Shown here piece after piece: positions 5,069 through 47,938 of a DNA stretch of 64,000 nt (position 1 is the first letter of the stretch; the number at the start of each line of letters is the position of its first letter). The notes below the pieces were generated by a model. It was not told the DNA's origin. It saw only the letters and a program-made list of their open reading frames with translations, and searched no databases. A program made the translations under genes and the position numbers. The DNA is from Balneolaceae bacterium (GTDB lineage Bacteria > Bacteroidota > Rhodothermia > Balneolales > Balneolaceae). The stretch is taken from the NCBI GenBank assembly GCA_036381435.1, contig DASVCW010000045.1:54616-118615 (forward strand), in the 5' to 3' direction.

Positions 5069-7195
5069 TTATTTGCTGTTACTCATGGCTTCGATGTGAG
5101 CTTTAAATGCATTGTAAAGCTCAGCATCTTGCCTTCCGCTTGGCCAGCAAATGTTGCCGCCGTATTCATAACACTTCACATGGTCAATAGTCAACTGCCA
5201 GATTAAACTACCATCGAGTTCAATTTTCTCGGCGGTTTCCCACATATCTTTATAGACCTGTAGCTGAGTGTTATCTCCCCAACCTACATATCCATATTCA
5301 CCCAGTACAAATGGTTTACCTACTTTTTCGGCAATATTTGAAAGGTCAGTAATCCAGGCTCGCTGCGCAGCTATTAGTTCAGAAGTGCTTCTGCCGGCAT
5401 AGCCCCAGTTTGAAGGATACCAGTGCGCCCCTCCGTAGTCAATTTCAGGGATGCTTGTGTTTAGCGTATAGCTCGTACCTAACTCAGCCCGAAGCGGGTA
5501 AGTATTAGCATATTGGCCTACAGAGTAATCAGCGGTTATCGCGGAACCAAATCCTTCTTCACCCGTGGTAACCATGTGATTTGGATCGATAGATTTAATA
5601 TACTGTGCCATTTCCTGGTACCAGTCTCTAAGTTGCTGGGGAGTTCCGTTAGGCATACGTCCTTCATTCATAATTTCCCAGGAGAAGATAGCGGATGAGT
5701 TTTTATACTTTACTCCGGTAACAGTATTGGTACGGTTTAACAGCATTTTGACGTAGTCTTTGAACCATCGCTGGGTATCTGGGTCGTTAATGAAATGCTT
5801 CATTCCACCGCCGGCGTTGCCATCCCATTCGTTATACTGTGGCATACCGCCTAACTCGTGCCAGTAATTAATCAAGGCAACAACAAACCGGATGCCATGT
5901 TCCTTTCCTTTAGCAATTACCTGGTCAAGGTAGCGTAAAGCCTGTTCGTTATACTGGCCCGGTTTCGGCTGTATAGTGATATCATTACCGTATTGAGGAG
6001 CTCCGTCATAAAAACCCCAGATTCGAATCACTTTTACGCCTGCTTCTTCAAAAGCCTCAAGGGTATTGGTAACAAACGTATCATTAATTTTTTGATAAGT
6101 AGGCAGGTAATAAGCATTCGTGCCGGCAAAACGGAAGACTTCACCGTTCAACATAAAATCGCCATTAGAAGCTGTAACTATTCCTTCGGCAGAGGTTGTG
6201 GGCGGTGGGGTTGATACTGCTGCTCCTTCGGTTGTAAATTCATAAATGGCAGACCAGTTTTCGTTATTTTCATCTGCAGCAACTTGAACTCTCCAATAAT
6301 AGGTTTGACTATTTTTAAGATCAGCAACTTCGTAAGAAGGGTCAGAAATCATTTCATCAACTATGGGAGAAGCAAAAGCTTTATCGGTTGCTAATTGAAC
6401 CTGATAAACATCGATGCTTGATTCCTCTTCCCATTTAAGGGTCACTTTGGTGGGTTGATCAGTAGCTTCATTTTCCGGTGAAGTAAGTACAACAGATCCC
6501 GCAGCTTTGGTTCCTGTTTCGAAACTAAACGTGTCAGACCATGCTGTTTCTTCATTCTCAACTACAGGCTTAACACGCCAGTAATAAGTAGTTTGAGTGG
6601 AAACTTCGGTGGTCTGGAAGGCGGCTTCCTGCACTTCTTCTTCAACAACGATGGAGCTGAAATTTTGATCGGTAGCAAGCTGCAAATTATAAGCTGATGC
6701 CGTTGCAACGGTAGTCCATTGCAGTTTAGCATTGGTAGGCACCTTGGTTGCCCCGTCTTTAGGAGATTGCAGTGATGTTGTTACCGGCTCTGAATTTTCA
6801 GCCTCAGCAGCGGTATTAAACATAGAAGTTTCTGACCAAGGACCTTCTTCATTTTGAAGCAGCGGCCTTACTTTCCAGAAAACAGTAGTATCGCCCGGAA
6901 GCGCAGTAACTTTAAAGCTGGTTGAATCAGCTGTGCCGTCAACAATCGGAGATGAAAAATCTTCGGTCGTAGATAACTGTATTTGATAAGAGGTAGCTTG
7001 GTCAACTTTACTCCATTCAAAAGTAAGTGAAGTTGACTCTTTAGAACCATTCTCGGGAGCCAGCAATTGAGGCTGACCTAAATTTTGTTCCTGGCCCAGT
7101 TCTGGTTCTAGGATTGGGGTGACTGAATCTCCGCACTGTACAAAAGCAAGAAGTATAAATATACCGGCGAAGATATTGATTAGTTTAGATTTCAT
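5069..7195 (-). CDS. GH5 glycoside hydrolase (mannanase-like) lipoprotein with three N-terminal fibronectin-III-like repeats
   Basis: Lipobox 'LAFVQC'; three repeats '...Y.LQLATD..F..PIV....YYWRV.P'; GH5 'FAGTNAYY', acid/base 'WEIMNEG', nucleophile 'VLGEYG'. Confidence 0.88.
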   Translation of the reverse strand: MKSKLINIFAGIFILLAFVQCGDSVTPILEPELGQEQNLGQPQLLAPENGSKESTSLTFEWSKVDQATSYQIQLSTTEDFSSPIVDGTADSTSFKVTALPGDTTVFWKVRPLLQNEEGPWSETSMFNTAAEAENSEPVTTSLQSPKDGATKVPTNAKLQWTTVATASAYNLQLATDQNFSSIVVEEEVQEAAFQTTEVSTQTTYYWRVKPVVENEETAWSDTFSFETGTKAAGSVVLTSPENEATDQPTKVTLKWEEESSIDVYQVQLATDKAFASPIVDEMISDPSYEVADLKNSQTYYWRVQVAADENNENWSAIYEFTTEGAAVSTPPPTTSAEGIVTASNGDFMLNGEVFRFAGTNAYYLPTYQKINDTFVTNTLEAFEEAGVKVIRIWGFYDGAPQYGNDITIQPKPGQYNEQALRYLDQVIAKGKEHGIRFVVALINYWHELGGMPQYNEWDGNAGGGMKHFINDPDTQRWFKDYVKMLLNRTNTVTGVKYKNSSAIFSWEIMNEGRMPNGTPQQLRDWYQEMAQYIKSIDPNHMVTTGEEGFGSAITADYSVGQYANTYPLRAELGTSYTLNTSIPEIDYGGAHWYPSNWGYAGRSTSELIAAQRAWITDLSNIAEKVGKPFVLGEYGYVGWGDNTQLQVYKDMWETAEKIELDGSLIWQLTIDHVKCYEYGGNICWPSGRQDAELYNAFKAHIEAMSNSK

Positions 7196-7656
7196 GTTAG
7201 GCTTTATTTTTTTGGGGTTTAGTAAGACAGAAAAAGCCGTTCTTTCCTGTCTTGCCGTTAAGTAGATGTAAATTTAAAAGAAACAGTGAGCTACAATATT
7301 GCTGACATTTCTTTGTCGAAAAATATTGCAGTTGCTTTGCACCAATTAACACAAGCATGTTGCGTTAATTATTACAAAGATCTTTCATACCCGCGCAATC
7401 AAAAAGTTGTTCCCAAACTATAGATAATATTAAGCTTAGACGTGCTGCTTCTTCTGCCTTCGTAAAAAGATGGCTTACAAAGATTTACAGTTCAGGAAGC
7501 AGGGAGAAGGGGAAGGAAGAAGAAAAAAAATCGAAAAAAAATTAAAACTTTTTAGAAAAAGGTGTGCATTTTCGTGTTCATATTGTTCGCATGCAAACGT
7601 AATAACAGTTGAAAGGGCTTGTAATAAATATTGAAGATCAGGGTAATATTTTGAAC

Positions 7657-7693
7657 AAAAAAAGCCCCTTCCGAAGAGAAATCCGGAAGGGGC
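7657..7693 (-). terminator. Rho-independent terminator after the second GH5
   Basis: Minus strand: gccccttccg-loop-cggaaggggc followed by 7 T. Confidence 0.8.
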
Positions 7694-7796
7694 CTGGGTT
7701 GTGCCGTCTGATAAAATGGAGGAGAGAAAGTCTTAAAAATTTAAGCTCCTTTCATATTCACCCGACCGCAAGACCACGCCCGGATGGTAAGACTTT

Positions 7797-9835: not shown

Positions 9836-11080
9836 TCAACCCGACACCCCGTTTGTTACGTTATTAATATGAACAGTGAACTCTTGGTACAACCGCTGGT
9901 CGCGGCGAGCGCCCGGCCAGCAGATATTACCGCCGTATTCGTAACATTTTATATGGTTGGTGGTAAGTTGCCACAGCAAGCTGCCGTCGAGTTCAATCTT
10001 TTCTGCGTAAGCCCAGAGATGGTTATAAACCTCCAGGACGCTCTCATCACCCCAGCCAGAGAAGCCATATTCGCCCAGCACAAATGGTTTGCCCAGCTCA
10101 GCGGCAATTTTAGCGTGATCATAAATCCAGGCGCGTTGAGCTTTCAGTAAATCGGCATCGGCTTTATGGCCAAAGCCCCAGCCGTTCGGATACCAGTGGG
10201 CCGTTCCATAATCAATTTCCGGGATTGCGGTATTTAAAATGTAGCTGCTGCCAATACCCGACCTTAGCACATAAGTGTTGGAATATTGATCAACGGAATA
10301 GGGGGAAGCGGGGGAATTCATTTTCACTTCCTGACCTTCTTCACCGGTCGCAACCATGTGATTGGGATCGATGGATTTTATGTATTGAGCAATTTCGCGA
10401 TACCAGTCCCGCAATTCGGTAGGATCTCCATCAGGCAGGCGGCCTTCATTCATAATTTCCCAGGAAAAGATAGCCGGCTCGTTTTTATATTTCACTCCTG
10501 TTACGGTATTGGTGCGATTGAGTAACATTTTGATATAATTCTTATACCATCGCTGGGTATCCGGGTCGTTGATGAAATGCTTCATGCCTGCATCGGGATG
10601 TCCGTCCCACTCATTATACTGAGGTACGCCGCCTAATTCTTCCCAGTAATTTATCAGGGTGATGATAAAACGAATACCTCGTTTTTTGCCCATTGCGATG
10701 AGCTGATCAAGATAGCGCAGGTTTTCTTCACTGTAAGCACCGGGCCGGGGCTGCAAGGTGATGTCATTTTCGAACTGGGGAGGTCCGTCATAAAATCCCC
10801 AAGTTCTGACTACCGTAATTCCCGCTTTTTCAAAGATATCAAGTGTCTTTTCAACAAATTCAGGTTTTATTTTTTGATAGTTGGGAAGGTAATAGGCATT
10901 GGTACCTACAAAGCGAAATTTATGTCCGTTAATTACAAAATCATTGCCTTTGGCTTGTACAAAAGCGTCTGGAAATTTTTTAGTTAGCGGAACACTACTT
11001 TTAGCAGCCGGAGCTCCCTGATTAAACAACTGGATGAACAAAAGTAAAAGCGGTGCCAAATATGTCTTTAAAAAAGCCAT
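9836..11080 (-). CDS. GH5 glycoside hydrolase (mannanase-like), signal peptide without lipobox
   Basis: Hydrophobic N-terminus without Cys; 'FVGTNAYY', 'WEIMNEG', 'VLGEYG'. Confidence 0.88.
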   Translation of the reverse strand: MAFLKTYLAPLLLLFIQLFNQGAPAAKSSVPLTKKFPDAFVQAKGNDFVINGHKFRFVGTNAYYLPNYQKIKPEFVEKTLDIFEKAGITVVRTWGFYDGPPQFENDITLQPRPGAYSEENLRYLDQLIAMGKKRGIRFIITLINYWEELGGVPQYNEWDGHPDAGMKHFINDPDTQRWYKNYIKMLLNRTNTVTGVKYKNEPAIFSWEIMNEGRLPDGDPTELRDWYREIAQYIKSIDPNHMVATGEEGQEVKMNSPASPYSVDQYSNTYVLRSGIGSSYILNTAIPEIDYGTAHWYPNGWGFGHKADADLLKAQRAWIYDHAKIAAELGKPFVLGEYGFSGWGDESVLEVYNHLWAYAEKIELDGSLLWQLTTNHIKCYEYGGNICWPGARRDQRLYQEFTVHINNVTNGVSG

Positions 11081-12690: not shown

Positions 12691-13899
12691 TTACTTAAAA
12701 GCAGATTTTTTAACGGCCTGAAGCAGGGGATCATTGACTTCACGCAAACGACTTTGAAAATAAGCGCCTCCTAATTCCCAAAGCATCACCCCGCCCAGCC
12801 TTTCTCTTTTCACGTATTCAATTTTATGTTCGATTGATCGTTCATTTTCAAAAGAAATAAAAGCCATCGGTTCTTCAAGATTTAAATAGGGAACTTTAGC
12901 ATGTTCATCCCATAAAGCCTCATCAAGGTTGAACCGGCGGCTAAGTTCGGTAAACGGGATGCCTTCGGGACGCTCGAAAATTGAGGTGTCTTGTAAGGGC
13001 CAGCTTTCCCATTTTCCCATAAAATGAACAGAATTCCATCGATAGCCATAAAAATTGATTCCGATGCCGATTTTGTTTCGCTCAATGCCCAAGTCAATGG
13101 CTTGCTCAATTATTTGACTTATACTCGGGAAAAGCTGCTGAGAGTTTTCAAAATTATATTTTTGGTTAAATAAAGCCGAATTATGCCACGCTTGCCAGCC
13201 TCTTAAGGGCTGAGCCATGTTATAAGTCATTATGTTTATCTGCTCAAAATAATCCTGAAGCGACGCATGCAGGCTAAGGGCGCTTACGTTGGCTGATGTA
13301 GCCGCCGTTATCATTAATTCTTCATCTCTTATATTTTCAAGAGCAGTAAAAGTAGCATCCAACTGGATTACAAGCTGCCGGTAATTATCATAGTCGCTTT
13401 CTTCGAGCGGATTCATGTTTAAACTGACACCGTCAAAATTATAAACAGTGATCATATTTATGATAGTGTCAATAAGCTGAGCCCGGTTAGTATCGTTAAT
13501 AGCACTGCTAAAGCCATCGTAATTATCGCGGCCGCCTACGGCAAACAGAATTTTAGTATCATTGGTATGGGCGGCAGGCACAATAGATCGTAACTTAGCC
13601 GCATTGAAAACAGCATCAGAATCAAGGCTGTCTTCCGGTGTTCCGTCAGGTGCGACAGACAGCGTAAAATATGTTAAATGCGTCATTGCGTCCCAGTCGA
13701 TATTTCCTGTGCCGATGGAACCGTTGGCCGCGTTAATACCAATATTATGTTGCCGGGCCGCGAGATAACCGTTTACCCAGATACCTTCATTTCCGGTGAT
13801 ACCCGAATTATTTTGAAAAAGACCACAAGACGTAACGATTAAAGCAGTACAGACTGCTAAAATGCTTTGCATAATCGTCTTGAGATACATTTTTTCCAT
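12691..13899 (-). CDS. GH18 chitinase-fold lipoprotein, catalytic motif degenerate
   Basis: Lipobox 'LIVTSC'; 'KILFAVGG', 'IMTYNM', 'GINFYG', 'KIEYVKRERLGGVMLWELG'; DxDxE motif reads 'FDGVSLNMN'. Confidence 0.85.
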   Translation of the reverse strand: MEKMYLKTIMQSILAVCTALIVTSCGLFQNNSGITGNEGIWVNGYLAARQHNIGINAANGSIGTGNIDWDAMTHLTYFTLSVAPDGTPEDSLDSDAVFNAAKLRSIVPAAHTNDTKILFAVGGRDNYDGFSSAINDTNRAQLIDTIINMITVYNFDGVSLNMNPLEESDYDNYRQLVIQLDATFTALENIRDEELMITAATSANVSALSLHASLQDYFEQINIMTYNMAQPLRGWQAWHNSALFNQKYNFENSQQLFPSISQIIEQAIDLGIERNKIGIGINFYGYRWNSVHFMGKWESWPLQDTSIFERPEGIPFTELSRRFNLDEALWDEHAKVPYLNLEEPMAFISFENERSIEHKIEYVKRERLGGVMLWELGGAYFQSRLREVNDPLLQAVKKSAFK

Positions 13900-13926
13900 C
13901 TTTATTTATGTTCTTCCTAACCATGA

Positions 13927-15864: not shown

Positions 15865-15891
15865 AAATTTTGAATTACGCTATTTATTTTT

Positions 15892-18500: not shown

Positions 18501-18518
18501 TTACAACAAATGTGCCAA
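18501..18518 (-). promoter_or_regulatory. sigma-54 -24/-12 promoter for the wza operon
   Basis: TTGGCACATTTGTTGTAA on minus strand, about 60 bp before the wza ATG. Confidence 0.7.
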
Positions 18519-18980: not shown

Positions 18981-18998
18981 TTGGCATAGCTATTGTAC
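18981..18998 (+). promoter_or_regulatory. sigma-54 -24/-12 promoter for the wzc-wzy-wzx operon
   Basis: TTGGCATAGCTATTGTAC, 50 bp before the start at 19048. Confidence 0.7.
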
Positions 18999-21270: not shown

Positions 21271-21305
21271 TCTTTCGGGTAAAATAAAACGGGTAAAAGA
21301 AAAGT

Positions 21306-30925: not shown

Positions 30926-30943
30926 AGTGCTTGATGAATAATT

Positions 30944-31398: not shown

Positions 31399-31416
31399 GT
31401 GCAATTAGTATGCCAA
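31399..31416 (-). promoter_or_regulatory. sigma-54 promoter for the sxtJ-sxtK-carbamoyltransferase-SGNH operon
   Basis: TTGGCATACTAATTGCAC, consensus match, 42 bp before the ATG. Confidence 0.8.
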
Positions 31417-32044: not shown

Positions 32045-32062
32045 TTGGCACGTTTGTTGCGA
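32045..32062 (+). promoter_or_regulatory. sigma-54 promoter for the deacetylase-GT4-GT4-GH9-GT2 operon
   Basis: TTGGCACGTTTGTTGCGA, consensus match. Confidence 0.8.
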
Positions 32063-33116: not shown

Positions 33117-33124
33117 ATTTAGAA

Positions 33125-34246: not shown

Positions 34247-34330
34247 TGGTCAATTATATCAGAAAGTGCGTTTCTGAAGCGGCAAAAATCAACGTAAACA
34301 GTAAAAGATAAAACCAATGCAGGTGCTATT

Positions 34331-38336: not shown

Positions 38337-38356
38337 TTAGATAAACAAGTCATTTT

Positions 38357-38455
38357 AAGCCATTAAAATGGTTTCCTTTGGTTGGAATACTGTTAACCCC
38401 GGATTAATCCGGGGGTTAATGAAAAACATCAAGGAGTGAACCGTTTCAACGGTTT
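38357..38455. repeat. family D three-hairpin element, copy 1
   Basis: aagccattaaaatggttt, gttaaccccggattaatccgggggttaat, aaccgtttcaacggttt; copy at 63677..63775. Confidence 0.7.
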
Positions 38456-38495
38456 ATCAAGAATGATTTTTTTAACTTATAAATTCTAAAAAACT

Positions 38496-39830
38496 ATGAT
38501 CACAAAAGAGATTAAGAATGTTAATGGGCATTCTAAAAAGATGGGGAACAAGGATTATGCTTATCAGATTATTTCGACTGAAGAGGAGTTTGAGGCGACA
38601 GAAGAAGAATGGACAGAATTAACTAATCATTCAGGATCAAAAATATTTCAAACATTCGACTGGCAGCGCATCTGGTGGAACTATTACGGGAAGGGGCTGG
38701 AACTAAATATAGTTCTGATACGAAAATATGAAAAGCTTATTGGCATTTTGCCAACTTTCATAGACTCTTATCAATCTTTTGGAAAGCCGGTTTATCGTTG
38801 CCTTCGTTTTATAGGATCGACTATAATGCAACCCAATGATACCAAAGTAGCCGGTTTTGTGGCCCAGGCCGGCTACTTAGATGTTATTGCCCGGTCCGGT
38901 TATGAAGATACTGTTATTAAATCGGTACAAGAATATTTGAATAATTATTGCAGTGAAATTCACCGAATTGCTTTTGATGAAGTTCCCGAGGACAGCCTGT
39001 TACACAGTGTGGTTGATAATTTAAAACAGAATCAGGCAAAATATTGGAATATATCGTTAAACAAGGCATCAGCTTGCCCTGCCATTCAGTTCCCCGAATC
39101 ATGGGATCAGTTTTTGAGCAACCTGAGCAGCAATGCAAGATATCAGATCAGGCGGGATGTAAAAAAAGTATATAACAGCAAAAAGAAGCTGTATGATTTA
39201 AAAATGATAGAGTCAGCTGAAGAAGTGATAACTGCTTATCAAACAATGGTTGATTATCATCAAAAGAGATGGAATAAAAGGGGGCTGCCGGGCAATTATG
39301 CAAACAAGAGCAGATATGATTTTAGAAAAGAGGTTTTAAAGCGGTTTTATGAGCTGGGATATTTACAGTTTCAGGTACTGACACCGAAAGATAAGCCTGA
39401 TGAATACCTGGCGCTGGACTTGCTTTTTAACTATAAGAATAAGATTTACTTAATTGAACGTGCTTTTAATGGGAGTGCCGACAAGAGTCATATGGGTTTT
39501 GGCAACATTCTTTTATACTCAGTGCTTAAGGAAGGAATGGATAACGGAGCAAAAGAATATGACTTTCTGCGTGGTACCGAAAGTTATAAGCTTCGCACAG
39601 CCAATCATATCGGCCAAAATTTACAGATCACTTTTGACCGGGCAAATAACTTTAAGTTCGGCAAAAAGTATTTGTTCGAATTAATACAGTTACGGATCGA
39701 GATAAAGCGGCGTTTTAACTGGGAAGTAGCAGCATTGCAGGCCCTGGCCCTGGAAAAAAATTATTTTAGGGCAGGAATTCAAATCGCTGTGACGCGATTT
39801 CTCCAAAAGTGGAAAAAAATTAATTCGTGA
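38496..39830 (+). CDS. GNAT (CelD/BcsL-like) protein 2
   Basis: 'FQTFDWQRIWW', 'SACPAI', 'HQKRW...GLPG', 'YDFLRGTESYK'. Confidence 0.85.
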   Translation: MITKEIKNVNGHSKKMGNKDYAYQIISTEEEFEATEEEWTELTNHSGSKIFQTFDWQRIWWNYYGKGLELNIVLIRKYEKLIGILPTFIDSYQSFGKPVYRCLRFIGSTIMQPNDTKVAGFVAQAGYLDVIARSGYEDTVIKSVQEYLNNYCSEIHRIAFDEVPEDSLLHSVVDNLKQNQAKYWNISLNKASACPAIQFPESWDQFLSNLSSNARYQIRRDVKKVYNSKKKLYDLKMIESAEEVITAYQTMVDYHQKRWNKRGLPGNYANKSRYDFRKEVLKRFYELGYLQFQVLTPKDKPDEYLALDLLFNYKNKIYLIERAFNGSADKSHMGFGNILLYSVLKEGMDNGAKEYDFLRGTESYKLRTANHIGQNLQITFDRANNFKFGKKYLFELIQLRIEIKRRFNWEVAALQALALEKNYFRAGIQIAVTRFLQKWKKINS

Positions 39831-40166: not shown

Positions 40167-40184
40167 TTGGCATAGTTGTTGTGT
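40167..40184 (+). promoter_or_regulatory. sigma-54 promoter for the GT4-ATP-grasp x3-GNAT operon
   Basis: TTGGCATAGTTGTTGTGT, 46 bp before the ATG. Confidence 0.7.
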
Positions 40185-40229: not shown

Positions 40230-41426
40230 ATGAAAATACTTCATCTCTTTCCATACCTCCCGTCGCCACCAACCTTTGGGGGAGCTTTACGGGTGTATCA
40301 TATTTTAAAGCACCTCAGTCAAAATCATGAAGTGACAGTGGGAGGATTCTGTGATTTTGGAGATATGGAATTATTCAAAGAAGATTTCCCGGGCGTGGAT
40401 GGTCACCTGTTTGTGCAACGGAGACGGGTAAATTACCGCCGGTTAATGCAGTTTTGTTCCCTTTTTACCCCTCACAGTTATTGGTATAACTGGGGGCAAT
40501 CACCAAAGCTGGAATCAAAGGTAAGAGCTCGTATCGCCGAAGAAGATTTCGATATCATTTTGGGTGAATTTGCATCTATGGGACATTTTGACCTTGAAAC
40601 GGATGCCATTCGAATTATGGATGCTCACAATATTGAATACGATAACTTTCGGAGAATGAGCACTCTCGAATGGTCCGGAATCAGAAAATGGTTTTACGAG
40701 CGGGAATCTGAGAAATGTTATTCCGAAGAGGTAAAGGCTTTTAAACGACATGATGCCATTTTTGCTACTTCAGAACGGGATAAAGCCATTATAGAAAAAA
40801 ATGCCCCTGGTATTCCCAAATTTGTGATTCCTAACGGGGTTGACACAAACTTTTTTTCAGCCAGTGAAACAGAGATTGAGCCGTTCTCGATGGTATTTAC
40901 CGGCGCCTTAAGTTATGTGCCGAACTATGACGGTATGATTTATTTTTTAGATGAAATTTTTCCCATCATTCAAAAAGTAGTTCCACAAGCAAAAGTTTAT
41001 ATCGTAGGCAGCAAGCCACCGGCCACATTGAAAAAATATGAGTCAAATTCGGTAACCGTTACCGGTTTTGTGGATGATGTTCGTCCCTATGTAGATCAGT
41101 CAAGCGTTTTTGTAGTTCCGCTAAGAATGGGCAGCGGCACACGCCTTAAAGTAGTTGAAGCGCTGTCGATGAAGAAACCGGTCGTTTCAACAAGTATAGG
41201 CTGCGAAGGCATAGATGTAAACGACAACGAGCATTTAATGGTGCGCGATGAACCCGCCGCTTTTGCTGAAGCGGTAATAAACCTTTTTAAAGATTCAAAA
41301 ACACGAAATAAACTGGTTGAAAATGGTTATCAACTGGTTAAACAAAAGTACGATTGGCAAGTAATAGGGCGATCGATAGACAACGCCTTTCAAGAGTTAA
41401 CATCAAACAAAAATATAATGGTATAA
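40230..41426 (+). CDS. GT4 glycosyltransferase
   Basis: 'PYLPSPPTFGGALRVY', 'VIPNGVD', 'FTGALSYVPN', 'GSGTRLKVVEALSMKKPVVST'. Confidence 0.92.
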   Translation: MKILHLFPYLPSPPTFGGALRVYHILKHLSQNHEVTVGGFCDFGDMELFKEDFPGVDGHLFVQRRRVNYRRLMQFCSLFTPHSYWYNWGQSPKLESKVRARIAEEDFDIILGEFASMGHFDLETDAIRIMDAHNIEYDNFRRMSTLEWSGIRKWFYERESEKCYSEEVKAFKRHDAIFATSERDKAIIEKNAPGIPKFVIPNGVDTNFFSASETEIEPFSMVFTGALSYVPNYDGMIYFLDEIFPIIQKVVPQAKVYIVGSKPPATLKKYESNSVTVTGFVDDVRPYVDQSSVFVVPLRMGSGTRLKVVEALSMKKPVVSTSIGCEGIDVNDNEHLMVRDEPAAFAEAVINLFKDSKTRNKLVENGYQLVKQKYDWQVIGRSIDNAFQELTSNKNIMV

Positions 41427-41430
41427 AATT

Positions 41431-42717
41431 ATGGCTATTTATTCGGGGGAATTTATAGATTTAGAGAATCCGGTTCTCGTAATCGGAGAAATGGGATTAG
41501 TGAGGAGCTTGGGAGAGATGGACCTGCCGCTTTTTTTGGGCACTGAAATCGAAAAAAATATTGCGGCGCATTCACGCTATGTAAAACAGCGCTTTTTCTT
41601 CTCGCCCTACGACAGTGAAGAATTTATTGATGAGCTGTGTGAACTGGGATATTATTTTAAGAAAAAACCGGTGATTTTGAGTGATGATGACCGGGCTATT
41701 TTAAATATTTCTGAAAACCGTAATAAATTGAAAGCTTATTATCTTTTCTTATATCCTGAGAGAAAAACGGTTAATAAGATACTGAATAAGCAGTACTTCA
41801 GTGAATTAGCCGAAAGGCACGAGCTTCCGGTTCCCGTATCTTATCAAACCACTTCTTCGCGCGATTTTAGGGAGGTGGCGTCTAAAATTAACTATCCATG
41901 TATTATCAAACCCACCCAGCGCCATTTTTGGTGGGGTGATGATTTTATTGAACAAATGGGACATTATCAAAAAGCCGTTAAATGTTCGGATCTTTATCAA
42001 TTTAAAGATACTTGTCAAAAAATATCGGAGGTTAATCCAAGTGTAGTAATTCAGGAATATGTTGAAGGAGATGACAAACAGCACTATAGCGCCAACTTAT
42101 TTGTGGATGAAAGAGGGAAGCTGCAAGGGTACTATATCGCCCGCAAAAAGCGGATTTATCCCATAAAAGCAGGTACCGGAAGCTATGTGGAAACGGTGGT
42201 TAATCCTGCAGTGCTTGAAATTTCAATGAAGATAGTAGAAAAGCTGGGGCTCAGGGGGCTTGTAAACATACAGTTTAAACAAGACAGTCGAACGGCAGAA
42301 TATAAGCTGTTAGAAATTCACGCCCGTAATAGCCTCTGGAGCCTTCTTGGAGCCAAGGCAGGAGCTAACTTGGCCTATCTTTATTATAACTATTTGGTAT
42401 ATGGGCTGCATCACGATAACGTCATTAAGGCCAGGCCAAACATTAAATATTTTAATCTGTCAAAAGATGTTCGGGCCTTACTGGCCTACCGGAATGAAGG
42501 GAAACTGACGGTGGCAGAATGGTGGCAGTCGCTACGGGGGGAGCGGATATTCGCAGCTTTTTCATGGAAAGATCCGCTGCCGGCACTGTTCAAAATTTGG
42601 GACATCGTTTTGAATAGTCTAAAACGAGCTGTTAAGAAAAAGCTGCCGCAACCCAAAAGGCTAAAGCATGAAAGCTTTTTAACACGGAACGCTAGTTTTT
42701 TAACCAGAATATTTTAG
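41431..42717 (+). CDS. ATP-grasp carboxylate-amine ligase 1 (D-aspartate-ligase-like)
   Basis: 'SDDD', 'LNKQYF', 'YPCIIKP', 'VVIQEYVEG', 'NIQFKQD', 'LLEIHAR'. Confidence 0.85.
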   Translation: MAIYSGEFIDLENPVLVIGEMGLVRSLGEMDLPLFLGTEIEKNIAAHSRYVKQRFFFSPYDSEEFIDELCELGYYFKKKPVILSDDDRAILNISENRNKLKAYYLFLYPERKTVNKILNKQYFSELAERHELPVPVSYQTTSSRDFREVASKINYPCIIKPTQRHFWWGDDFIEQMGHYQKAVKCSDLYQFKDTCQKISEVNPSVVIQEYVEGDDKQHYSANLFVDERGKLQGYYIARKKRIYPIKAGTGSYVETVVNPAVLEISMKIVEKLGLRGLVNIQFKQDSRTAEYKLLEIHARNSLWSLLGAKAGANLAYLYYNYLVYGLHHDNVIKARPNIKYFNLSKDVRALLAYRNEGKLTVAEWWQSLRGERIFAAFSWKDPLPALFKIWDIVLNSLKRAVKKKLPQPKRLKHESFLTRNASFLTRIF

Positions 42718-42721
42718 TGTT

Positions 42722-43936
42722 ATGGAACAAAATCATCATCCCGCATTAATATTGGGTGAAATCGGGTTAGTGCAAAGCTTGGGTGAGGCCGGCGTTCCTG
42801 TCTATATCGGAACCGAAATCAGGGATAACCCCTCACTTTTTTCCCGTTACAATCAAAAAACCGTTTGTTTTTCTGATTATACCTCTCCCGAATTTATTGA
42901 TGAGCTTTGCAAATTTGGTGAAACCTTAGAACAAAAAGCGGTTATTTTTAGTGATGATGATCATGCTATTTTAAACATCAGTCAGCATCAAGAGCGCATT
43001 AAAAACTATTTTTTATTCACTTTTCCACAAGCCGAAAAAGTTAAAAAATTGCTCGACAAGCAATTGTTTTGTGAAATTATCGAGCAATACAATTTACCGG
43101 CTCCAAAGTCTATAACACTTTCATCCGTTCAGGAAATGGCAGTAAAAGATGTTTCAGAGCTTAACTTCCCTTGCATCATCAAGCCTTCCTTCAAACAAGC
43201 CTGGTGGGGTACTGATTTTGATAAAAAAGTGGGTGATTATCAGAAAGCGATAAAGTGTGAGTCTTATGATGATGCGGTGCAAAAATATGAACAAATTGCA
43301 GAAGTGAATCCACACGTGGTTATTCAGGAATTTATTGAAGGCAAAGAAGATCAGCTTTACAGTGTAAACATGTATGTGGGTAATGAAGGAGATCTTAAAG
43401 GTTATTTCATCGCTCAAAAATTGCGCACCTATCCTGTTCAGGCCGGTGAAGGTTGTTATATCGTCACGGTCCGTGATGATGAAATGATAGCTATGGCCAT
43501 GACTATCGCTGATAAAATTGGTTTAAAGGGGCTTTTAAACATCCAGTTTAAGCGGGACCGGCGCAGTGGAAAGCCGGTTTTATTAGAAATACATGCCCGA
43601 AACAGCGTTTGGAGCTATTTGGGTACAGAGGCAGGCGTTAATCTTGCTGCGCTTTATTATGAGGATTTAACGGGGGGGAAACGATTTAAAATTCCTGATT
43701 ATAAAGCGGGAGTTACATTCATTTTTTTACAAAAAGACATCAAAGCATTCATCCAAAATTTTAGAATGAAGCAAATTTCAATCGGTAAGTGGATCGCCTC
43801 GTATTTCAGGAGATTTATAGTGGCGGGTTACCGGTGGAATGATCCATTGCCACTACTTATGACGTTGTATTTTTTCATCAGAAGGAGGCTATATGTACAC
43901 AATGTAAAGCTCTTCCCTAAAAGCACAATGCCATAA
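42722..43936 (+). CDS. ATP-grasp carboxylate-amine ligase 2
   Basis: 'FPCIIKP', 'VVIQEFIEG', 'NIQFKRD', 'LLEIHAR'. Confidence 0.85.
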   Translation: MEQNHHPALILGEIGLVQSLGEAGVPVYIGTEIRDNPSLFSRYNQKTVCFSDYTSPEFIDELCKFGETLEQKAVIFSDDDHAILNISQHQERIKNYFLFTFPQAEKVKKLLDKQLFCEIIEQYNLPAPKSITLSSVQEMAVKDVSELNFPCIIKPSFKQAWWGTDFDKKVGDYQKAIKCESYDDAVQKYEQIAEVNPHVVIQEFIEGKEDQLYSVNMYVGNEGDLKGYFIAQKLRTYPVQAGEGCYIVTVRDDEMIAMAMTIADKIGLKGLLNIQFKRDRRSGKPVLLEIHARNSVWSYLGTEAGVNLAALYYEDLTGGKRFKIPDYKAGVTFIFLQKDIKAFIQNFRMKQISIGKWIASYFRRFIVAGYRWNDPLPLLMTLYFFIRRRLYVHNVKLFPKSTMP

Positions 43937-43991
43937 GTCAACATTAAAGAGAAATTTAAAAGATAATCACAATTACAAATCAGCATATATA

Positions 43992-45158
43992 ATGATTAAT
44001 CAGAAGTCTCCTGTGTTAACCTTTAGCGCATTAGGTTTAATACATTGTCTGGGAACAGCAGGAATTCCTGTTTATACTGCATCAGAAGAAAAACCAAACG
44101 TAGCATCTTATTCAAGATACTCTAAAAAACACACTATTTTTTCACCATTCGCTTCAGAAGCATTCATAGATGAGTTATGTGATTTGGGAAATTCATTCGA
44201 TGGAAAGATTGCTTTAATGTGGACTCATGATGGAGCCGGGCTCAACATTTCTAATAATAGAGAACGGCTTAAAGAAAATTTTCTGTTTCGTCTACCCCAT
44301 CCTGAAATGGTAAAAAAAATATTAAACAAATTATTGTTTTGCCGACTTTGCGAAGAATATGATTTACCGGCACCTGAATCTGTTGAGGTATCTCAATTAG
44401 ATGAACTAAAGAAAGCAAAAAAACGATTAAAGGCACCATTCATTATTAAACCGGCTCATACTTATTATTGGTATCATAAAGATTTTTCAAAGATCATAGG
44501 TAACTATCAAAAAGCATTTATTTTCCAAAATTTTGATGAAGTTGAAGCCTTTTATAAGAAAATATCAAAAATTAATCCCAATGTGGTTTTACAGGAATAT
44601 GTAGTGGGTGATGATCATCAGTTGTTTGATGTTAATTTACACATCAATCAAAAAGGAGAAATAGATAGTTATGCAATAGCCCAAAAAATGCGCGTTTATC
44701 CCCCAAAAGCAGGGTGGGGCTGTTATGTAAAAACAATATTTGATGAGGAGTTACTTGAAATATGTAAAAGAATTATAGCAAAGCTGGAACTTAAAGGAAT
44801 GATGAATATTCAGTTCAAGAGGGATGAGCGAACCAATCAGCCGAAGCTAATCGAAATGCACCCCAGAACCAGTATTTTCGATTTTCTTGGAACCGCGGCA
44901 GGTCAAAATATCCCTTTAAAGTATTACTCTAGTTTAACAGGCATACAAATTGGTGAATCGAAGCAGTATCAAACTGACATTAAATACATCAATATTGCCA
45001 GAGATTTGCGGCTGTTAATTCGGCATCGAAAAGATTATGGGCTTTCACTGATGGAGTGGATGAAAAGTTACAGCGGTGTTTCTGTTTACGACGGAATGAT
45101 GTTAAAAGATCCGCGGGTGCTTTACCATGAGCTTCGATCTGCTTTTATAAATAGTTAA
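43992..45158 (+). CDS. ATP-grasp carboxylate-amine ligase 3
   Basis: 'APFIIKP', 'VVLQEYVVG', 'NIQFKRD', 'LIEMHPR'. Confidence 0.85.
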   Translation: MINQKSPVLTFSALGLIHCLGTAGIPVYTASEEKPNVASYSRYSKKHTIFSPFASEAFIDELCDLGNSFDGKIALMWTHDGAGLNISNNRERLKENFLFRLPHPEMVKKILNKLLFCRLCEEYDLPAPESVEVSQLDELKKAKKRLKAPFIIKPAHTYYWYHKDFSKIIGNYQKAFIFQNFDEVEAFYKKISKINPNVVLQEYVVGDDHQLFDVNLHINQKGEIDSYAIAQKMRVYPPKAGWGCYVKTIFDEELLEICKRIIAKLELKGMMNIQFKRDERTNQPKLIEMHPRTSIFDFLGTAAGQNIPLKYYSSLTGIQIGESKQYQTDIKYINIARDLRLLIRHRKDYGLSLMEWMKSYSGVSVYDGMMLKDPRVLYHELRSAFINS

Positions 45159-45271
45159 CTTACTGTTAATACTTTAGTTATATTATTTTTTAAAGCGGGT
45201 ATATACGTTCAAAAATACAACATCAAGATGAGTTTTAGTTCAGGAATTCAGAAAAATAGGAAAGTCTGACA

Positions 45272-46627
45272 ATGAGTATTGAGGAACATCAAATAAAGAA
45301 AACAGAATTAATTGATTTAAAAGAGAATGGAGGGAGTGAAAATTCTTCAGATGGAACATTAAATGTTTTAGTGATTTCAGGCACTGAAATGTTTGACGGT
45401 ATTTCAGAGGAATGGCGGAACGTAGCTGAAATTTCAAGTACTTACATTTTTCAAACTTATGAATGGAACCGGATCTGGTGGAAACATTTCGGGGACGGCC
45501 AGCAGTTGAATATTCTGCTTTTTTATCAGGATGATTTACTGCTTGGCATCGCGCCATTATTTCTTGACAAGGTTACCTTTATGGGACTCAAAATGTACTC
45601 TTGTCTTCGTTTTATTGGTTCTACCGTAAGTCAGCCTGAAGGAGAGGATTTAAAGGGACTTTTACCTTATTCCGATTATCTCGACCTGATCATTCGTCCC
45701 GGTTACGAGAGGCAAGTTAACCGGAAATTTATGGAATATCTGGCAAATAATGAGCTGGATTTTAATGAAGTAGTTTTAGATGAAATACCTGAAAACAGCT
45801 CATTGAGGAACTATTTAATGCCGGATTTAGAAGAGCAGGACAAGGATTACCTGGTGCAGCAAAGTTCCGCTTGTCCCGTCATAGAATTAGGTCGTTCCTG
45901 GGATGAGCACTTGGCTGACATGAGCAAAAGCTCGCGATATAAAACACGGCGTTTTATAAAACAGGCAGAAAAACCGGGTTATAAGATTTTTGAAATAAAA
46001 GAAGCCCCCGATAAAGCCGGAATAGAAAAAGCTTATGAAAAACTGGTGAAATTACATCAAAAACGATGGAAGGATTTGGGCTATCCCGGAATCTTCGATG
46101 AGAAGCGAATGTACAATTTTCTGAAAGAGATAACACTGGAGTTTTTTGATCACGGATGGGCACAATGTAAATTAGCTCATTCGATCGAAGAAAATGGCAA
46201 GTGCATAGCCGTTGATCTGCTCTTCAAATATAAACGGCGCGAGTACCTGGTGCAGCGCGCCTTAGATTCCGATTCACCATCTGCCGAACACGGCCCGGGG
46301 AATGTATTGCTTTATGTGATGTTAAGAGATGCGGCAGAAAAGGGTATTGAGGAGTTTGACCTTTTGAGGGGCACTGAATCTTATAAGTTTCGATCTGCTA
46401 ATAGCTTATTAAAGAATGATACCGTCACCTTTAAAAACCCCGGCAAAAAGCTTGCTTTGAACTTTGGGTTCACCAAAAAATTTATCAAGTCCAGAAGAAG
46501 GTTCAGGATTGAACATGAACAGTTTAAAATTTTTCTAAACGGAGAGAAAAACCTGTTCAATAATATTCATGATTACGGTAATTTTTTATATAACCGTCTG
46601 TCACTGAAATTCAATTCGAAAGGATGA
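45272..46627 (+). CDS. GNAT (CelD/BcsL-like) protein 3
   Basis: 'FQTYEWNRIWW', 'SACPVI', 'HQKRW...GYPGIF', 'FDLLRGTESYK'. Confidence 0.85.
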   Translation: MSIEEHQIKKTELIDLKENGGSENSSDGTLNVLVISGTEMFDGISEEWRNVAEISSTYIFQTYEWNRIWWKHFGDGQQLNILLFYQDDLLLGIAPLFLDKVTFMGLKMYSCLRFIGSTVSQPEGEDLKGLLPYSDYLDLIIRPGYERQVNRKFMEYLANNELDFNEVVLDEIPENSSLRNYLMPDLEEQDKDYLVQQSSACPVIELGRSWDEHLADMSKSSRYKTRRFIKQAEKPGYKIFEIKEAPDKAGIEKAYEKLVKLHQKRWKDLGYPGIFDEKRMYNFLKEITLEFFDHGWAQCKLAHSIEENGKCIAVDLLFKYKRREYLVQRALDSDSPSAEHGPGNVLLYVMLRDAAEKGIEEFDLLRGTESYKFRSANSLLKNDTVTFKNPGKKLALNFGFTKKFIKSRRRFRIEHEQFKIFLNGEKNLFNNIHDYGNFLYNRLSLKFNSKG

Positions 46628-47106: not shown

Positions 47107-47107
47107 T

Positions 47108-47881
47108 CTAATACTTATTACTGACTTTAAGAATCAGCACATTTAAGGCAAAGAGCGGCAGTTTGAGCATCCGGCGCCAGCGCTGGGGTTGGTTACACAA
47201 GCGGTAAAACCATTCTAATCCACTTTTTTGCAGCCATTTTGGTGCCCTTTTAACATTACCTGCAATAAAATCAAAGGTGCCGCCAATACCGATAATCAAC
47301 TTGCAGTTTGGCAGCTTTGGCAGGTTTTCATTAATCCATTTTTCCTGAGCCGGTGCTCCGAGGGCCACGAAAACGACAGAAGCATTTTGTAGTTGTTCCC
47401 GTTTGTCGTCAGGCAACTCCTCAAGCGGGATATCCGGTTTTTCAGGTGAATATGTGCCCGAAATGTTAAAGCTTTCAATTCTACTTTGGAGAATAGTGGC
47501 AGCTTTTTCTGCTACTGTTGGCATAGCACCATAAAGAAATGCTGATTCATGATGCTTGCCGCAAAGAGCACATATATTTTCTAAAGAATCTGATCCCGTT
47601 ATTCGATCTACGTGTTTATTGTACAAAAATTCTATAGCCCAGCTAATGCCAACTCCGTCTGCGGTATTTATACTTGATGATGTAAGAATATGTTTGAATT
47701 CATTATCAATAATAGACTGAATGACAATTTCGGGATTTACGGTAATGACAAACACAGGGGGAGTGACGGGGTCATTATCCTTCAATCGGGATTCTATAAG
47801 TTCATAAAATTCATCTCTTGAATATGGAGAAATATCTACTCCAAGAACCGAATAAGGTTCTTTTTTGTCTAATACCAGCAT
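47108..47881 (-). CDS. WecB/TagA/CpsF (GT26) glycosyltransferase
   Basis: 'VITVNPEI', 'ADGVGI', 'RITGSD', 'ALGAPAQEKW', 'GIGGTFD', 'RAPKW.QK.GLEWFYRL..QP.RWRR'. Confidence 0.93.
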   Translation of the reverse strand: MLVLDKKEPYSVLGVDISPYSRDEFYELIESRLKDNDPVTPPVFVITVNPEIVIQSIIDNEFKHILTSSSINTADGVGISWAIEFLYNKHVDRITGSDSLENICALCGKHHESAFLYGAMPTVAEKAATILQSRIESFNISGTYSPEKPDIPLEELPDDKREQLQNASVVFVALGAPAQEKWINENLPKLPNCKLIIGIGGTFDFIAGNVKRAPKWLQKSGLEWFYRLCNQPQRWRRMLKLPLFALNVLILKVSNKY

Positions 47882-47920
47882 GAATAGTGCTTAATTCGTT
47901 GTTTTTACTTTCCATTAAAA

Positions 47921-47938
47921 AAGCAATAAACATGCCAT
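47921..47938 (-). promoter_or_regulatory. sigma-54 promoter for the WecB/TagA gene
   Basis: ATGGCATGTTTATTGCTT on minus strand, 40 bp before the ATG. Confidence 0.75.

Follow-up and report, generated by a model that had tools for sequence, protein, structure and literature searches.

The 64,000-nucleotide stretch of Balneolaceae DNA analyzed here (contig DASVCW010000045.1; hereafter the window) very probably carries a sigma-54-controlled locus of a soil member of this family that makes an exopolysaccharide or capsular polysaccharide (EPS/CPS) by the Wzx/Wzy pathway. Six operons, each headed by a sigma-54 -24/-12 promoter, hold 27 of its 31 genes, and core promoters recur at orthologous sites in related genomes, within a conserved core to which individual strains add genes of their own. 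The orthologous promoters, the conserved core and the strain-specific additions are among the new elements. That sigma-54 governs the cell surface and its EPS is already well documented (PMC3162934), as is export by a short outer-membrane polysaccharide export (OPX) protein with a beta-barrel (PMC9601211). For the whole we favor, with moderate confidence, an explanation that combines this locus with a mechanism, proposed below, for decorating its product. Nothing in it lies outside known categories, and it is common for uncharacterized EPS loci to carry unusual sets of tailoring genes.

Gene classes were assigned by scanning the window open reading frames (ORFs) of at least 100 residues against Pfam and NCBIfam (Table 1). 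The pathway type, operon layout, promoters and conservation, as well as the predicted folds and topology, are read from the sequence. An earlier note on this DNA had placed an EPS locus at 5069-47938; its contents were borne out, with each listed gene class recovered in place, but the conserved locus also takes in an activator gene at 3592-4626. For the pathway, which that note had called complete, there are matches to the initiating transferase, Wzx, Wzy, the polysaccharide co-polymerase (PCP) and OPX. The few backbone transferases (WecA-type, WecG/TagA, three family 4 glycosyltransferases (GT4) and one GT2) are outnumbered by tailoring genes, namely those for three ATP-grasp proteins (AG1-AG3), three Acetyltransf_6 proteins (Fem1-Fem3), a carbamoyltransferase with SxtJ and DUF5989 proteins, two SGNH proteins, NodB and a sulfotransferase. 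Five proteins noted for a hydrolase fold proved to be glycoside hydrolases (GH): three GH5, a GH18 and a GH9. The paralogous pairs and triplets are real, spanning 24-65% pairwise identity (GH5 64-65%, ATP-grasp 39-45%, Fem-like 24-37%, the SGNH pair 37%, GT4a/b 57%). Sugar-nucleotide synthesis families had been called absent, and the Pfam scan of ORFs in the 64-kb window indeed matched none.

Sigma-54 promoters at orthologous positions

We searched both strands of the window with the pattern TGGYAY-N5-TTGY and obtained eight matches, where base composition predicts about 1.0. Six of these fall between genes, face the gene that follows and stand 42-220 nt 5' of its start codon, and all six lie inside the locus; because only 4.6% of strand-positions are eligible, the binomial probability of this placement is 2.6e-7. 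Conservation is stronger evidence than these window statistics that the promoters are real. In the metagenome-assembled genome (MAG) CAZBCG010000002 of an uncultured Balneolaceae member, which contributes two of the related loci (L005 and L007; loci from elsewhere bear the prefix L), a -24/-12 element precedes the orthologs of the OPX, PCP, NodB, GT4c and WecG genes, i.e. five of five core positions, with the encoded proteins being only 45-73% identical to those of the window. Two to three of the five core promoters are kept in the cultivable Fodinibius sp. AD559 (L004; GCA_052712805.1), L012 and L013.

At individual sites, the core of the operon 1 promoter recurs unchanged at 7338+ of L007, its orthologous position, and that of operon 2 has its counterpart in the same locus at 7082-7096 (-). 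Orthologs of the operon 4 promoter lie 41-49 nt 5' of NodB in L005 and L004, those of the operon 5 promoter were found in L005 (7466) and L013 (7400), and those of the WecG promoter in L004 (12418-32), L005 (12128-42) and L013 (16344-58). The earlier claim that six matching promoters join the separate operons stands for six operons, five of them with promoters conserved in relatives, but fails for the four leftmost genes. A scan of 4600-19100 for the sigma-70 consensus gave no enrichment (30 found against 34.6 expected).

Upstream of 6 of 19 sigma-54 promoters in the window and related loci we observed a TGT-N11-ACA palindrome (e.g. TGTAAAAATATTGCACA), against an expectation of 0.84, at a distance of about 90-100 nt and in one case 164 nt. 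Its position is conserved at the GT4c promoter, where it lies about 100 nt 5' in the window and at -99 in L005. This palindrome is a candidate activator-binding site for a subset of the operons. The 6-mers found enriched 5' of the six promoters, which form GTGTAA/TTTTACA half-sites, lost significance once multiple testing was corrected for.

The operon 4 promoter is followed by a leader (32072-32282, +) predicted to adopt a multi-stem fold of -55.7 kcal/mol (z = -5.06), a stability that none of 200 shuffled sequences reached. It is strain-specific, since the promoter of the relatives lies only 41-49 nt from NodB. Neither Rfam at gathering thresholds, including for this leader, nor ARAGORN reported anything in the window. 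Between Fem2 and the GT4c promoter (39882-40033) there is a 29-nt inverted repeat, 90% complementary with a 94-nt spacer, whose two arms can each form a GC-rich hairpin of their own; this repeat could act as a terminator or represent an element like a repetitive extragenic palindrome (REP).

A conserved core with strain-specific additions

The region, put forward earlier as a candidate undescribed system, is not a one-off: the locus is conserved across the Balneolaceae, and relatives of Fem1 occur across the Balneolales. A comparison of gene neighborhoods, the kind of check that the earlier note had suggested, revealed that the core is shared with other Balneolaceae, in which about 30 kb is conserved at a fixed site beside DnaB, UDG and a radical-SAM enzyme. 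On the left this core comprises the enhancer-binding protein (EBP), fn3-GH5, GH5, GH18, the WecA fusion, an AAA+ protein, the beta-barrel and OPX; in the middle the PCP, kinase-like protein, Wzy, Wzx and Fem1, followed by NodB, GT4, GH9 and GT2; and on the right GT4c and two ATP-grasp proteins, and then WecG.

Gene order and 46-69% amino-acid identity (65-91% for the AAA+ protein) are conserved for operon 1 in L007 and L008, and the order of operon 2 in L007. L005 and L013 share NodB-GT4-GH9-GT2 with the window, and L012 shares NodB-GH9-GT2, without Fem2 and the second GT4; GT4c-AG1-AG2 recurs in L004, L005 and L013, with AG3 and Fem3 being extra in the window. WecG is conserved beside DnaB in the same three loci. 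The other additions of the window are the sulfotransferase, the third GH5, the carbamoyltransferase cassette with its duplicated SGNH, and the duplicated GT4. Other strains have different extras, such as an epimerase and a hexapeptide acyltransferase in L004 and L013, a methyltransferase and three further Fem genes in L013, and a carbamoyltransferase cassette with a CPSase-large-subunit-like gene in L012. In terms of gene content such variation is what a serotype-type polysaccharide locus shows, rather than a unique system, and the window is the richest variant seen of a Balneolaceae-wide locus. Its set of amide-forming enzymes is unusually rich and varies among strains.

Searches for individual families gave a similarly restricted distribution. 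Among 5.8 billion proteins the ATP-grasp family has 81 matches at E <= 1e-20, those with a named source all being from the Balneolaceae, and the Fem1 family has 161, all named ones from the Balneolales except one 'Bacteroidota bacterium' MAG. The WecA fusion has a 90% identical relative in a Balneolaceae soil MAG, and a genome scan found only two relatives. In metagenome contigs the ATP-grasp and Fem genes are adjacent to each other and to GT4c, NodB, GH18 and GH5; the contigs of this ATP-grasp profile scan are mostly shorter than 5 kb and yield adjacency counts only. The window sequence itself was matched in a soil metagenome run. The earlier note had recognized no characterized locus with this combination of genes, and this holds up: the NCBIfam equivalogs for Myxococcus Eps and XrtA proteins score below their cut-offs, no description was found in the library of papers searched, and a literature search on Balneolaceae EPS returned no account of such a locus.

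Table 1. Features of the locus (window coordinates unless a related locus is named)
Feature	Coordinates	Strand	Remarks
Sigma-54 EBP, 344 aa	3592..4626	+	Sigma54_activat 228.6 bits, HTH_8 50.5 bits (Pfam)
fn3-GH5 lipoprotein, 708 aa, beta-mannanase-like	5069..7195	-	Pfam fn3, Ig_Rha78A_N, GH2_C; lipobox-type N-terminus
GH5 endo-beta-1,4-mannanase-like lipoprotein, 419 aa	7797..9056	-	Pfam Cellulase; signal peptide and Cys
GH5 mannanase-like paralog, 414 aa, predicted secreted	9836..11080	-	Pfam Cellulase, signal peptide; 65% identical to 7797-9056
Sulfotransferase, PAPS-type, 352 aa	11351..12409	-	Sulfotransfer_3 37.3 bits, Sulfotransfer_1 27 bits, above cut-offs
Operon 1	12691..18442	-	OPX, beta-barrel, AAA+, WecA fusion, GH18; transcribed from 18503-18517
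GH18 lipoprotein	12691-13899	-	operon 1
WecA/MraY-type initiating transferase fusion, 645 aa	13927-15864	-	Glycos_transf_4 142 bits
Degenerate EBP-like AAA+ protein, 278 aa	15892-16728	-	inside operon 1
Predicted outer-membrane beta-barrel, 334 aa, signal peptide	16725-17729	-	gene overlaps OPX gene
Short D1D2-type OPX lipoprotein, 238 aa	17726-18442	-	Poly_export 77.7 bits, SLBB 43 bits
Sigma-54 promoter, operon 1	18503..18517	-	TGGCACATTTGTTGT; 61 nt 5' of OPX gene
Sigma-54 promoter, operon 2	18982..18996	+	TGGCATAGCTATTGT; 52 nt 5' of PCP gene
Operon 2	19048..25742	+	PCP, BY-kinase-like, Wzy, Wzx, Fem1
PCP/Wzz	19048-20379	+	Wzz 34.9 bits; GNVR 24.5 bits, below 27.7-bit cut-off
BY-kinase-like P-loop protein	20351-21109	+	TIGR03018 83 bits against cut-off of 231
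Wzy polymerase	21306-22871	+	Wzy_C 48.3 bits, 13 hydrophobic segments
Wzx flippase	22868-24367	+	Polysacc_synt 113.6 bits, 13 hydrophobic segments
Fem1, FemX-like	24399-25742	+	Pfam Acetyltransf_6
Operon 3, accessory cassette	26459..31357	-	SxtJ, DUF5989, carbamoyltransferase, two SGNH
Membrane-anchored SGNH/AlgX-like proteins	27646-28725, 26459-27649	-	Pfam, weak AlgX resemblance
NodU/CmcH-family carbamoyltransferase, 619 aa	28894-30753	-	Carbam_trans_N 313.7 bits, Carbam_trans_C 251.2 bits
DUF5989/SxtK-like peptide, one transmembrane segment	30776-30925	-	Pfam, topology
SxtJ-like protein, three transmembrane segments	30944-31357	-	Pfam, topology
Sigma-54 promoter, carbamoyltransferase cassette	31401..31415	-	TGGCATACTAATTGC; 44 nt 5' of SxtJ
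Sigma-54 promoter, operon 4	32046..32060	+	TGGCACGTTTGTTGC; then ~205-nt structured leader
Operon 4	32280..39830	+	NodB, GT4a, GT4b, GH9, GT2, Fem2
NodB-type deacetylase	32280-33116	+	predicted cytoplasmic, signal-less
GT4a	33125-34246	+	Pfam/NCBIfam
GT4b	34331-35437	+	57% identical to GT4a
GH9 lipoprotein	35434-37143	+	operon 4
Membrane GT2 resembling EpsU/PgaC	37140-38336	+	Pfam/NCBIfam
Fem2	38496-39830	+	Pfam Acetyltransf_6
Sigma-54 promoter, operon 5	40168..40182	+	TGGCATAGTTGTTGT; 5' of GT4c
Operon 5	40230..46627	+	GT4c, AG1-AG3, Fem3
GT4c, TIGR03087-like	40230-41426	+	NCBIfam
AG1 ATP-grasp	41431-42717	+	Pfam ATPgrasp_Ter, CPSase_L_D2
AG2 ATP-grasp	42722-43936	+	AlphaFold2 model, pLDDT 91.3
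AG3 ATP-grasp	43992-45158	+	Pfam
Fem3	45272-46627	+	Pfam Acetyltransf_6
WecG/TagA/CpsF-family ManNAc(A) transferase (operon 6)	47108..47881	-	Glyco_tran_WecG 171.5 bits; TIGR00696 147 bits, above cut-off
Sigma-54 promoter, WecG (operon 6)	47923..47937	-	TGGCATGTTTATTGC; 42 nt 5' of gene
TGT-N11-ACA palindromes	18818-18834, 31488-31504, 40068-40084; L005 ~7367; L001 ~9243, ~15971		

Assembly and export machinery and its relation to known systems

The OPX protein contains only Poly_export and a single SLBB domain, like the short Class-3 OPX proteins that are purely periplasmic and have no helix spanning the outer membrane (PMC9601211). With the neighboring predicted barrel, the export parts would match a translocon of a short periplasmic OPX and an outer-membrane beta-barrel, which in that class has 16-18 strands. 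In the WecA fusion the transferase (residues ~1-355) is joined to a module that resembles the noncatalytic N-terminal portion of large polyprenyl-phosphate hexose-1-phosphate transferases (PHPTs), with transmembrane segments and CoA_binding_3; this module matches positions 1-219 of 445 of TIGR03025 and is without the catalytic Bac_transf domain. L007 and L008 have the same fusion; its TIGR02380 (WecA) score in the window of 120.6 bits lies below the equivalog cut-off of 326. The kinase-like protein has Walker A (ANPKEGKT) and Walker B (FVVVD) motifs and only scattered C-terminal tyrosines; like EcpK of Myxococcus, it may be a pseudokinase (PMC12004946). Abutting the WecG stop codon on the opposite strand is a perfect 7-nt tandem repeat (TCCAGCA x 6.3; 47065-47108), and a second short array (14 nt x 2.7) occupies 46635-46672.

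The EPS system of Myxococcus xanthus resembles the locus in its Wzx/Wzy pathway, its short D1D2-type OPX next to an outer-membrane beta-barrel (a predicted one in the window), and its PCP with a separate kinase-like protein, as well as in a locus-encoded glycoside hydrolase and a sigma-54 EBP (EpsI/Nla24) (PMC9601211, PMC4877007, PMC12004946). The window further has an EpsU-like GT2, an EpsA-like WecG-type protein and an EpsE-like GT4. However, the scores are far below the cut-offs of the curated models (bits/cut-off: EpsU 275/700, Wzy_EPS 99/670, Wzx_EPS 76/800, EpsA 117/500, EpsY 69/320). Moreover, the initiating enzyme of M. xanthus, EpsZ, is a PHPT, whereas the window initiates with a WecA-type fusion of the polyprenyl-phosphate N-acetylhexosamine-1-phosphate transferase (PNPT) kind, and the EBP of the window lacks a receiver domain. 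To our knowledge, the Myxococcus eps locus has no counterparts of the Fem-like, ATP-grasp, NodB, carbamoyl or sulfo genes.

XrtA/PEP-CTERM exosortase-associated EPS loci (Haft et al. 2006) have the same families of OPX, PCP, tyrosine-kinase-like, GT4 (stp1/stp2-like) and polysaccharide deacetylase proteins, and they include a FemAB-family protein. The best NCBIfam models for the OPX, PCP, kinase-like protein and GT4c of the window are XrtA-associated, and XrtA loci likewise pair deacetylase and glycosyltransferase families with sigma-54 regulation, having sigma-54 promoters with a dedicated EBP (PMC1569441). We nevertheless regard it as very improbable that this is such a system with its exosortase and PEP-CTERM substrates encoded elsewhere in the genome. 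Each XrtA-associated match is below its curated cut-off (bits/cut-off: TIGR03027 90/180, TIGR03007 109/279, TIGR03018 83/231, TIGR03087 245/317, TIGR03006 21/276); no exosortase was matched among the ORFs of at least 100 residues in the 64-kb window, and a regular expression found no PEP-CTERM tail among those of at least 60 residues. Further, the described XrtA sigma-54 sites precede genes for PEP-CTERM proteins, whereas those of the window precede biosynthetic operons. PrsK, PrsR and PrsT are lacking; the activator has no PrsR receiver domain, and in a scan of the AAA+ paralog (15892-16728) TIGR02915 gave 93 bits against 502. The Fem-like proteins match no NCBIfam model, hence not the XrtA-associated FemAB model either, and a literature search on FemAB with PEP-CTERM found no description of this locus.

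Both XrtA membership and orthology to Myxococcus Eps were rejected, all curated models being below cut-offs; given this and the lack of exosortase and PEP-CTERM proteins, the locus belongs to neither system. Enterobacterial common antigen offers a third likeness, with a WecA-type enzyme followed by WecG/TagA, Wzx/Wzy assembly and a fixed chromosomal site across the family. Here too the equivalogs fall short (WecA 121 against 326 bits, WecG 120 against 323), and the window adds OPX/beta-barrel export and extensive tailoring. WecF had no match among the locus genes scanned against both Pfam and NCBIfam, and the whole-window Pfam scan found no genes for dTDP-Fuc4NAc synthesis.

Fem-like, ATP-grasp and other tailoring enzymes

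By a simple hydrophobicity and N-terminus check, NodB, Fem1-3, AG1-3, the sulfotransferase and the carbamoyltransferase have no signal peptide and are predicted to be cytoplasmic, while the five glycoside hydrolases and OPX are predicted to be exported, mostly as lipoproteins, and the SGNH proteins have one N-terminal transmembrane segment. Given that undecaprenyl-linked repeat units are built in the cytoplasm, the predicted location of the NodB, Fem-like and ATP-grasp proteins supports the earlier suggestion of a glyco-peptide-like polymer, as does the model of Fem1; it is a plausible hypothesis.

To the Pfam models the three Fem-like proteins belong solely to Acetyltransf_6. An AlphaFold2 model of Fem1 built from 37 homologs (pLDDT 87.7) has as its top PDB neighbor FemX of W. 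viridescens (E 2.6e-13, TM-score 0.70 on the target), followed by the peptide synthases Sbb17/Sba18, solved with streptothrisamine, FemA and FemX of S. aureus and the aminoacyl-lipid synthase domains of MprF. The 11 best fold matches are all aminoacyl-tRNA-dependent enzymes (TM-score 0.62-0.70 on the target), although sequence identity to the solved Fem proteins is only 8-13%. The model also has long C-terminal helices (394-446) reminiscent of the tRNA-binding helix of Fem proteins, and the FemX-like Orf11 is reviewed as glycylating an amino sugar, streptothrisamine, with Gly-tRNA (PMC12945691). K371 is invariant within an equally invariant E-x-Y-K-x-D-F stretch in the alignment of 37 sequences, a comparison made at the sequence level and without superposition on FemX K305. 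Fem1, previously noted as a GNAT, models as a FemX-like double-GNAT aminoacyl-tRNA transferase.

An alternative that we consider unlikely is an ordinary acylated EPS, with the Acetyltransf_6 proteins being acyl-CoA-dependent N- or O-acyltransferases of the CelD/BcsL type and the ATP-grasp proteins making a precursor or a single amide. It draws on the Pfam assignment, FemAB_like having appeared just once (E 0.009), on the naming of Fem1 relatives as CelD/BcsL acetyltransferases by JGI, and on the presence of acyl-CoA double GNATs (the glucosamine N-acetyltransferase 5kf1 and VipF) among the fold matches. A PDB sequence search with Fem3 found no match. The fold neighbors of AG2 are likewise generic (PurK, a CPS-like protein and L-amino-acid ligases; TM-score ~0.6, E ~1e-16) and give no clue to a substrate, and a PDB sequence search returned generic CPS matches only. 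However, the acyl-CoA GNATs lie lower in the Fem1 list, at 0.43-0.46, and the long C-terminal helices recall those of Fem proteins. Three to four Fem-like copies per locus (L013) would be excessive for simple acetylation. In addition, the Fem-like genes co-vary with ATP-grasp genes whose relatives JGI names D-aspartate ligase, the other known route to amino acids in peptidoglycan side chains.

The peptidoglycan FemABX enzymes and ATP-grasp D-aspartate ligases, whose likeness to the window proteins lies in the FemX fold of Fem1 and the naming of the ATP-grasp relatives, both act in the cytoplasm on nucleotide- or lipid-linked sugar-peptide precursors. The window differs in its low identity to them and in its context, which is an EPS locus rather than cell-wall or antibiotic synthesis. 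A second parallel is the tailoring of rhizobial Nod factors, in which NodB frees an amine for re-acylation. The window has a membrane GT2 (cf. NodC), a NodB-type de-N-acetylase, a NodU-family carbamoyltransferase (140 bits) and a PAPS-type sulfotransferase (cf. NodH). Yet NodB scores 45 against 240 bits and NodU 140 against 1000, NodA is lacking, and the product would be a Wzy-polymerized, OPX-exported polymer instead of a lipo-chitooligosaccharide.

The sulfotransferase, which by its family assignment would use 3'-phosphoadenosine-5'-phosphosulfate (PAPS), has an N-terminal PRSGTSW loop and no counterpart in the syntenic MAG locus L007. The earlier suggestion that the product could be sulfated and carbamoylated has its genes in place but is not supported or overstated, as both modifications would depend on strain-specific accessory genes.

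The carbamoyltransferase cassette

The carbamoyltransferase is not NodU itself, as its score against the NodU equivalog is 140 of the 1000 bits required. It is 73-77% identical to proteins of KSB1, Krumholzibacteriota, Latescibacterota, Bacteroidales, Desulfobacteraceae and Neomarinimicrobiota, and the cassette, a portable module of four genes, recurs as a unit in L001, L002, L003, L009, L010 and L012, and without SGNH in L011, with carbamoyltransferases that are 75-84% identical. In five of these seven other contexts (L001, L003, L009, L010 and L012) it lies inside or beside polysaccharide clusters; in L012 the CPSase-large-subunit-like gene adjoins it. With a transferase predicted in the cytoplasm, small proteins in the membrane and SGNH/AlgX-like proteins in the periplasm, the cassette recalls, as an analogy only, the relays of polysaccharide O-acylation. 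A PDB sequence search with SGNH1 found only weak SGNH thioesterase matches, and in the library of papers searched there was neither a mention of DUF5989 nor a link between SxtJ and polysaccharides.

The core of the cassette promoter is identical in L001, near-identical in L012 and matched more weakly in L002; no such promoter was found 5' of the cassette in L003, L009, L010 or L011. We rejected it as an intrinsic part of the cassette on account of these last four. Since only the Balneolaceae-related copies carry it, apart from the weaker L002 match, the sigma-54 promoter would have been acquired when the cassette joined the regulon. The cassette is most likely a horizontally mobile glycan-modifying module that was recruited into the regulon and adds carbamoyl groups.

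Its target need not be this polymer, given that it sometimes lies away from polysaccharide genes. In L002 it stands alone, and in L011 it is about 5 kb from LpxB/LpxK, with carbamoyltransferases ~75% identical across at least six phyla. Such conservation, unusual for an enzyme of variable polysaccharides, would also fit a conserved non-EPS target, and most related Balneolaceae loci do without the cassette (between Fem1 and NodB it is missing from L004, L005 and L013). These observations could mean that the cassette acts on some conserved part of the envelope, such as a lipid or a component of peptidoglycan or lipopolysaccharide, and is merely parked in the locus, which we find rather doubtful: the cassettes of the window, L001 and L012 have the locus-type sigma-54 promoter and are placed either next to the NodB operon or in the interval from Fem1 to NodB, those of L003, L009 and L010 are within or next to unrelated polysaccharide clusters, and the SGNH partners bear a weak resemblance to AlgX, an acyltransferase of polysaccharides.

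Glycoside hydrolases and the left arm

The C-terminal 380 residues of the fn3-GH5 protein are 64-65% identical to the two GH5 paralogs, and orthologs of this protein are found in L001 and L007. The WecG/TagA family makes a beta-1,4-ManNAc(A) linkage, and a mannanase-like GH5 fits such a bond, though it could equally mean mannan catabolism. Another possibility is that the left arm (5069-12409) is a catabolic or unrelated set of genes that only abuts the biosynthetic locus. Its four genes are split by gaps of 270-780 nt and by a strong intrinsic terminator (7695-7662) just 3' of the GH5 gene at 7797-9056, they have no sigma-54 promoter, and the GH5 domains are close to genuine endo-beta-mannanases (7797-9056 against PDB 8gf3, E 5.5e-62). 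We nonetheless hold this to be quite unlikely, because in the syntenic L007 the activator and GH18 genes flank orthologs of the fn3-GH5 and GH5 genes, an fn3-GH5 gene is found 3' of the cassette in L001, and GH5 and GH18 adjoin an ATP-grasp gene in L021 and L022. Pfam scans also found no SusC/SusD or transporter genes nearby, and a mannanase-like enzyme could plausibly cut the WecG-type linkage.

Activator, degenerate paralog and flanks

The protein encoded at 3592-4626 has a PspF-like architecture without an N-terminal sensor or receiver domain, and its alignment shows intact Walker A and Walker B motifs and GAFTGA loop. With an ortholog (73.5% identical) at the same locus edge in the MAG CAZBCG01 (L007), it is, going by synteny, the likely activator of the six promoters, to which it would bind. 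Compared with this activator, the AAA+ protein of operon 1 has the GAFTGA loop deleted, D-Q in place of D-E in Walker B and no helix-turn-helix (HTH). It is conserved in L007 and L008, and exhaustive searching with HMMER yielded a single close representative cluster and looser, short relatives without GAFTGA that keep a C-terminal extension aligning with the HTH region of the activator. On the basis of its motifs it cannot itself activate sigma-54. Since the loop, the catalytic glutamate and the HTH are all lacking, its probable role is to form mixed oligomers with the activator and so to modulate it in a kind of feedback.

To the left of the activator (119-3336, +) are part of a histidine kinase gene and the genes of two LuxR-type response regulators that are paralogs of each other, separated by a 1.2-kb stretch (1472-2691) with no convincing ORFs; a pair of a histidine kinase and a LuxR-type response regulator also lies beside related EPS genes in L006. 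The right flank has MarC, DnaB, UDG, the radical-SAM enzyme and, 7 kb from the EPS locus, a type IV pilus cluster (54971-63540, +) encoding a PilB-like ATPase, a cNMP-binding protein, a PilT-like ATPase, PilN/PilO-like proteins and a secretin with a SPOR domain. No sigma-54 motif precedes this cluster.

A proposed mechanism and its implications

The chemistry of the product is entirely inferred from the gene content. Under the explanation that we favor, the WecA-type enzyme would load GlcNAc-1-P onto undecaprenyl phosphate, WecG would add beta-1,4-linked ManNAc or ManNAcA, and GT4a/b, GT2 and GT4c would complete a penta- to hexasaccharide repeat with three to four further sugars. At the cytoplasmic face the NodB-type deacetylase would free a sugar amine, onto which the three FemX-like enzymes would move amino acids from aminoacyl-tRNA. 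The three ATP-grasp proteins, as carboxylate-amine ligases, would add amides on a uronic acid carboxylate or lengthen the amino-acid stub, and the sulfotransferase would add sulfate. Wzx would then flip the unit, Wzy would polymerize it under control of the PCP and kinase-like protein, and OPX with the beta-barrel would export the polymer. The recruited SxtJ/DUF5989/carbamoyltransferase/SGNH cassette would most likely add carbamoyl groups, and the exported GH18, GH9 and GH5 proteins may trim or release the polymer.

Some results weigh against this explanation. No RNA runs with window sequence were found, the runs being soil-metagenome DNA only. The window has no genes for uronic acids or other precursors, and no rpoN; the beta-barrel scores 61 bits against the PorV/PorQ cut-off of 90; and the sulfotransferase and three GH5 genes stand outside the promoter set. 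The generic Pfam, JGI and fold matches of the Fem-like and ATP-grasp proteins and the solitary cassettes, discussed above, pull in the same direction.

Decoration of the polymer with amino acids specifically is a possibility that we advance tentatively. More speculative, and somewhat doubtful, is the idea that the Balneolales make a true glycopeptide-type EPS, for which a toolkit for peptidoglycan side chains would have been moved onto a Wzx/Wzy polymer. The ATP-grasp ligases would then extend or cross-link the loaded amino acids, and the varying copies of Fem (1-4) and ATP-grasp (1-3) genes per locus would encode strain-specific peptide 'serotypes' under one sigma-54 switch.

If the chemistry is as proposed, the Fem-type enzymes would be the first tRNA-dependent ones acting on an exopolysaccharide, and the locus would represent a set of natural tools by which amino acids, carbamoyl and sulfate are put on a secreted polysaccharide. 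This would be relevant to the chemistry of biofilm matrices, to soil aggregation and to glyco-engineering. Should the chemistry prove ordinary, the widespread and highly conserved SxtJ/DUF5989/carbamoyltransferase/SGNH cassette still stands as a result, as does an EPS locus of serotype-like variability that occupies a fixed site throughout a family of the little-studied Balneolales. On the regulatory side, this locus brings together six conserved sigma-54 promoters, one sensor-less activator and one operon-encoded degenerate AAA+ paralog, with possible feedback.

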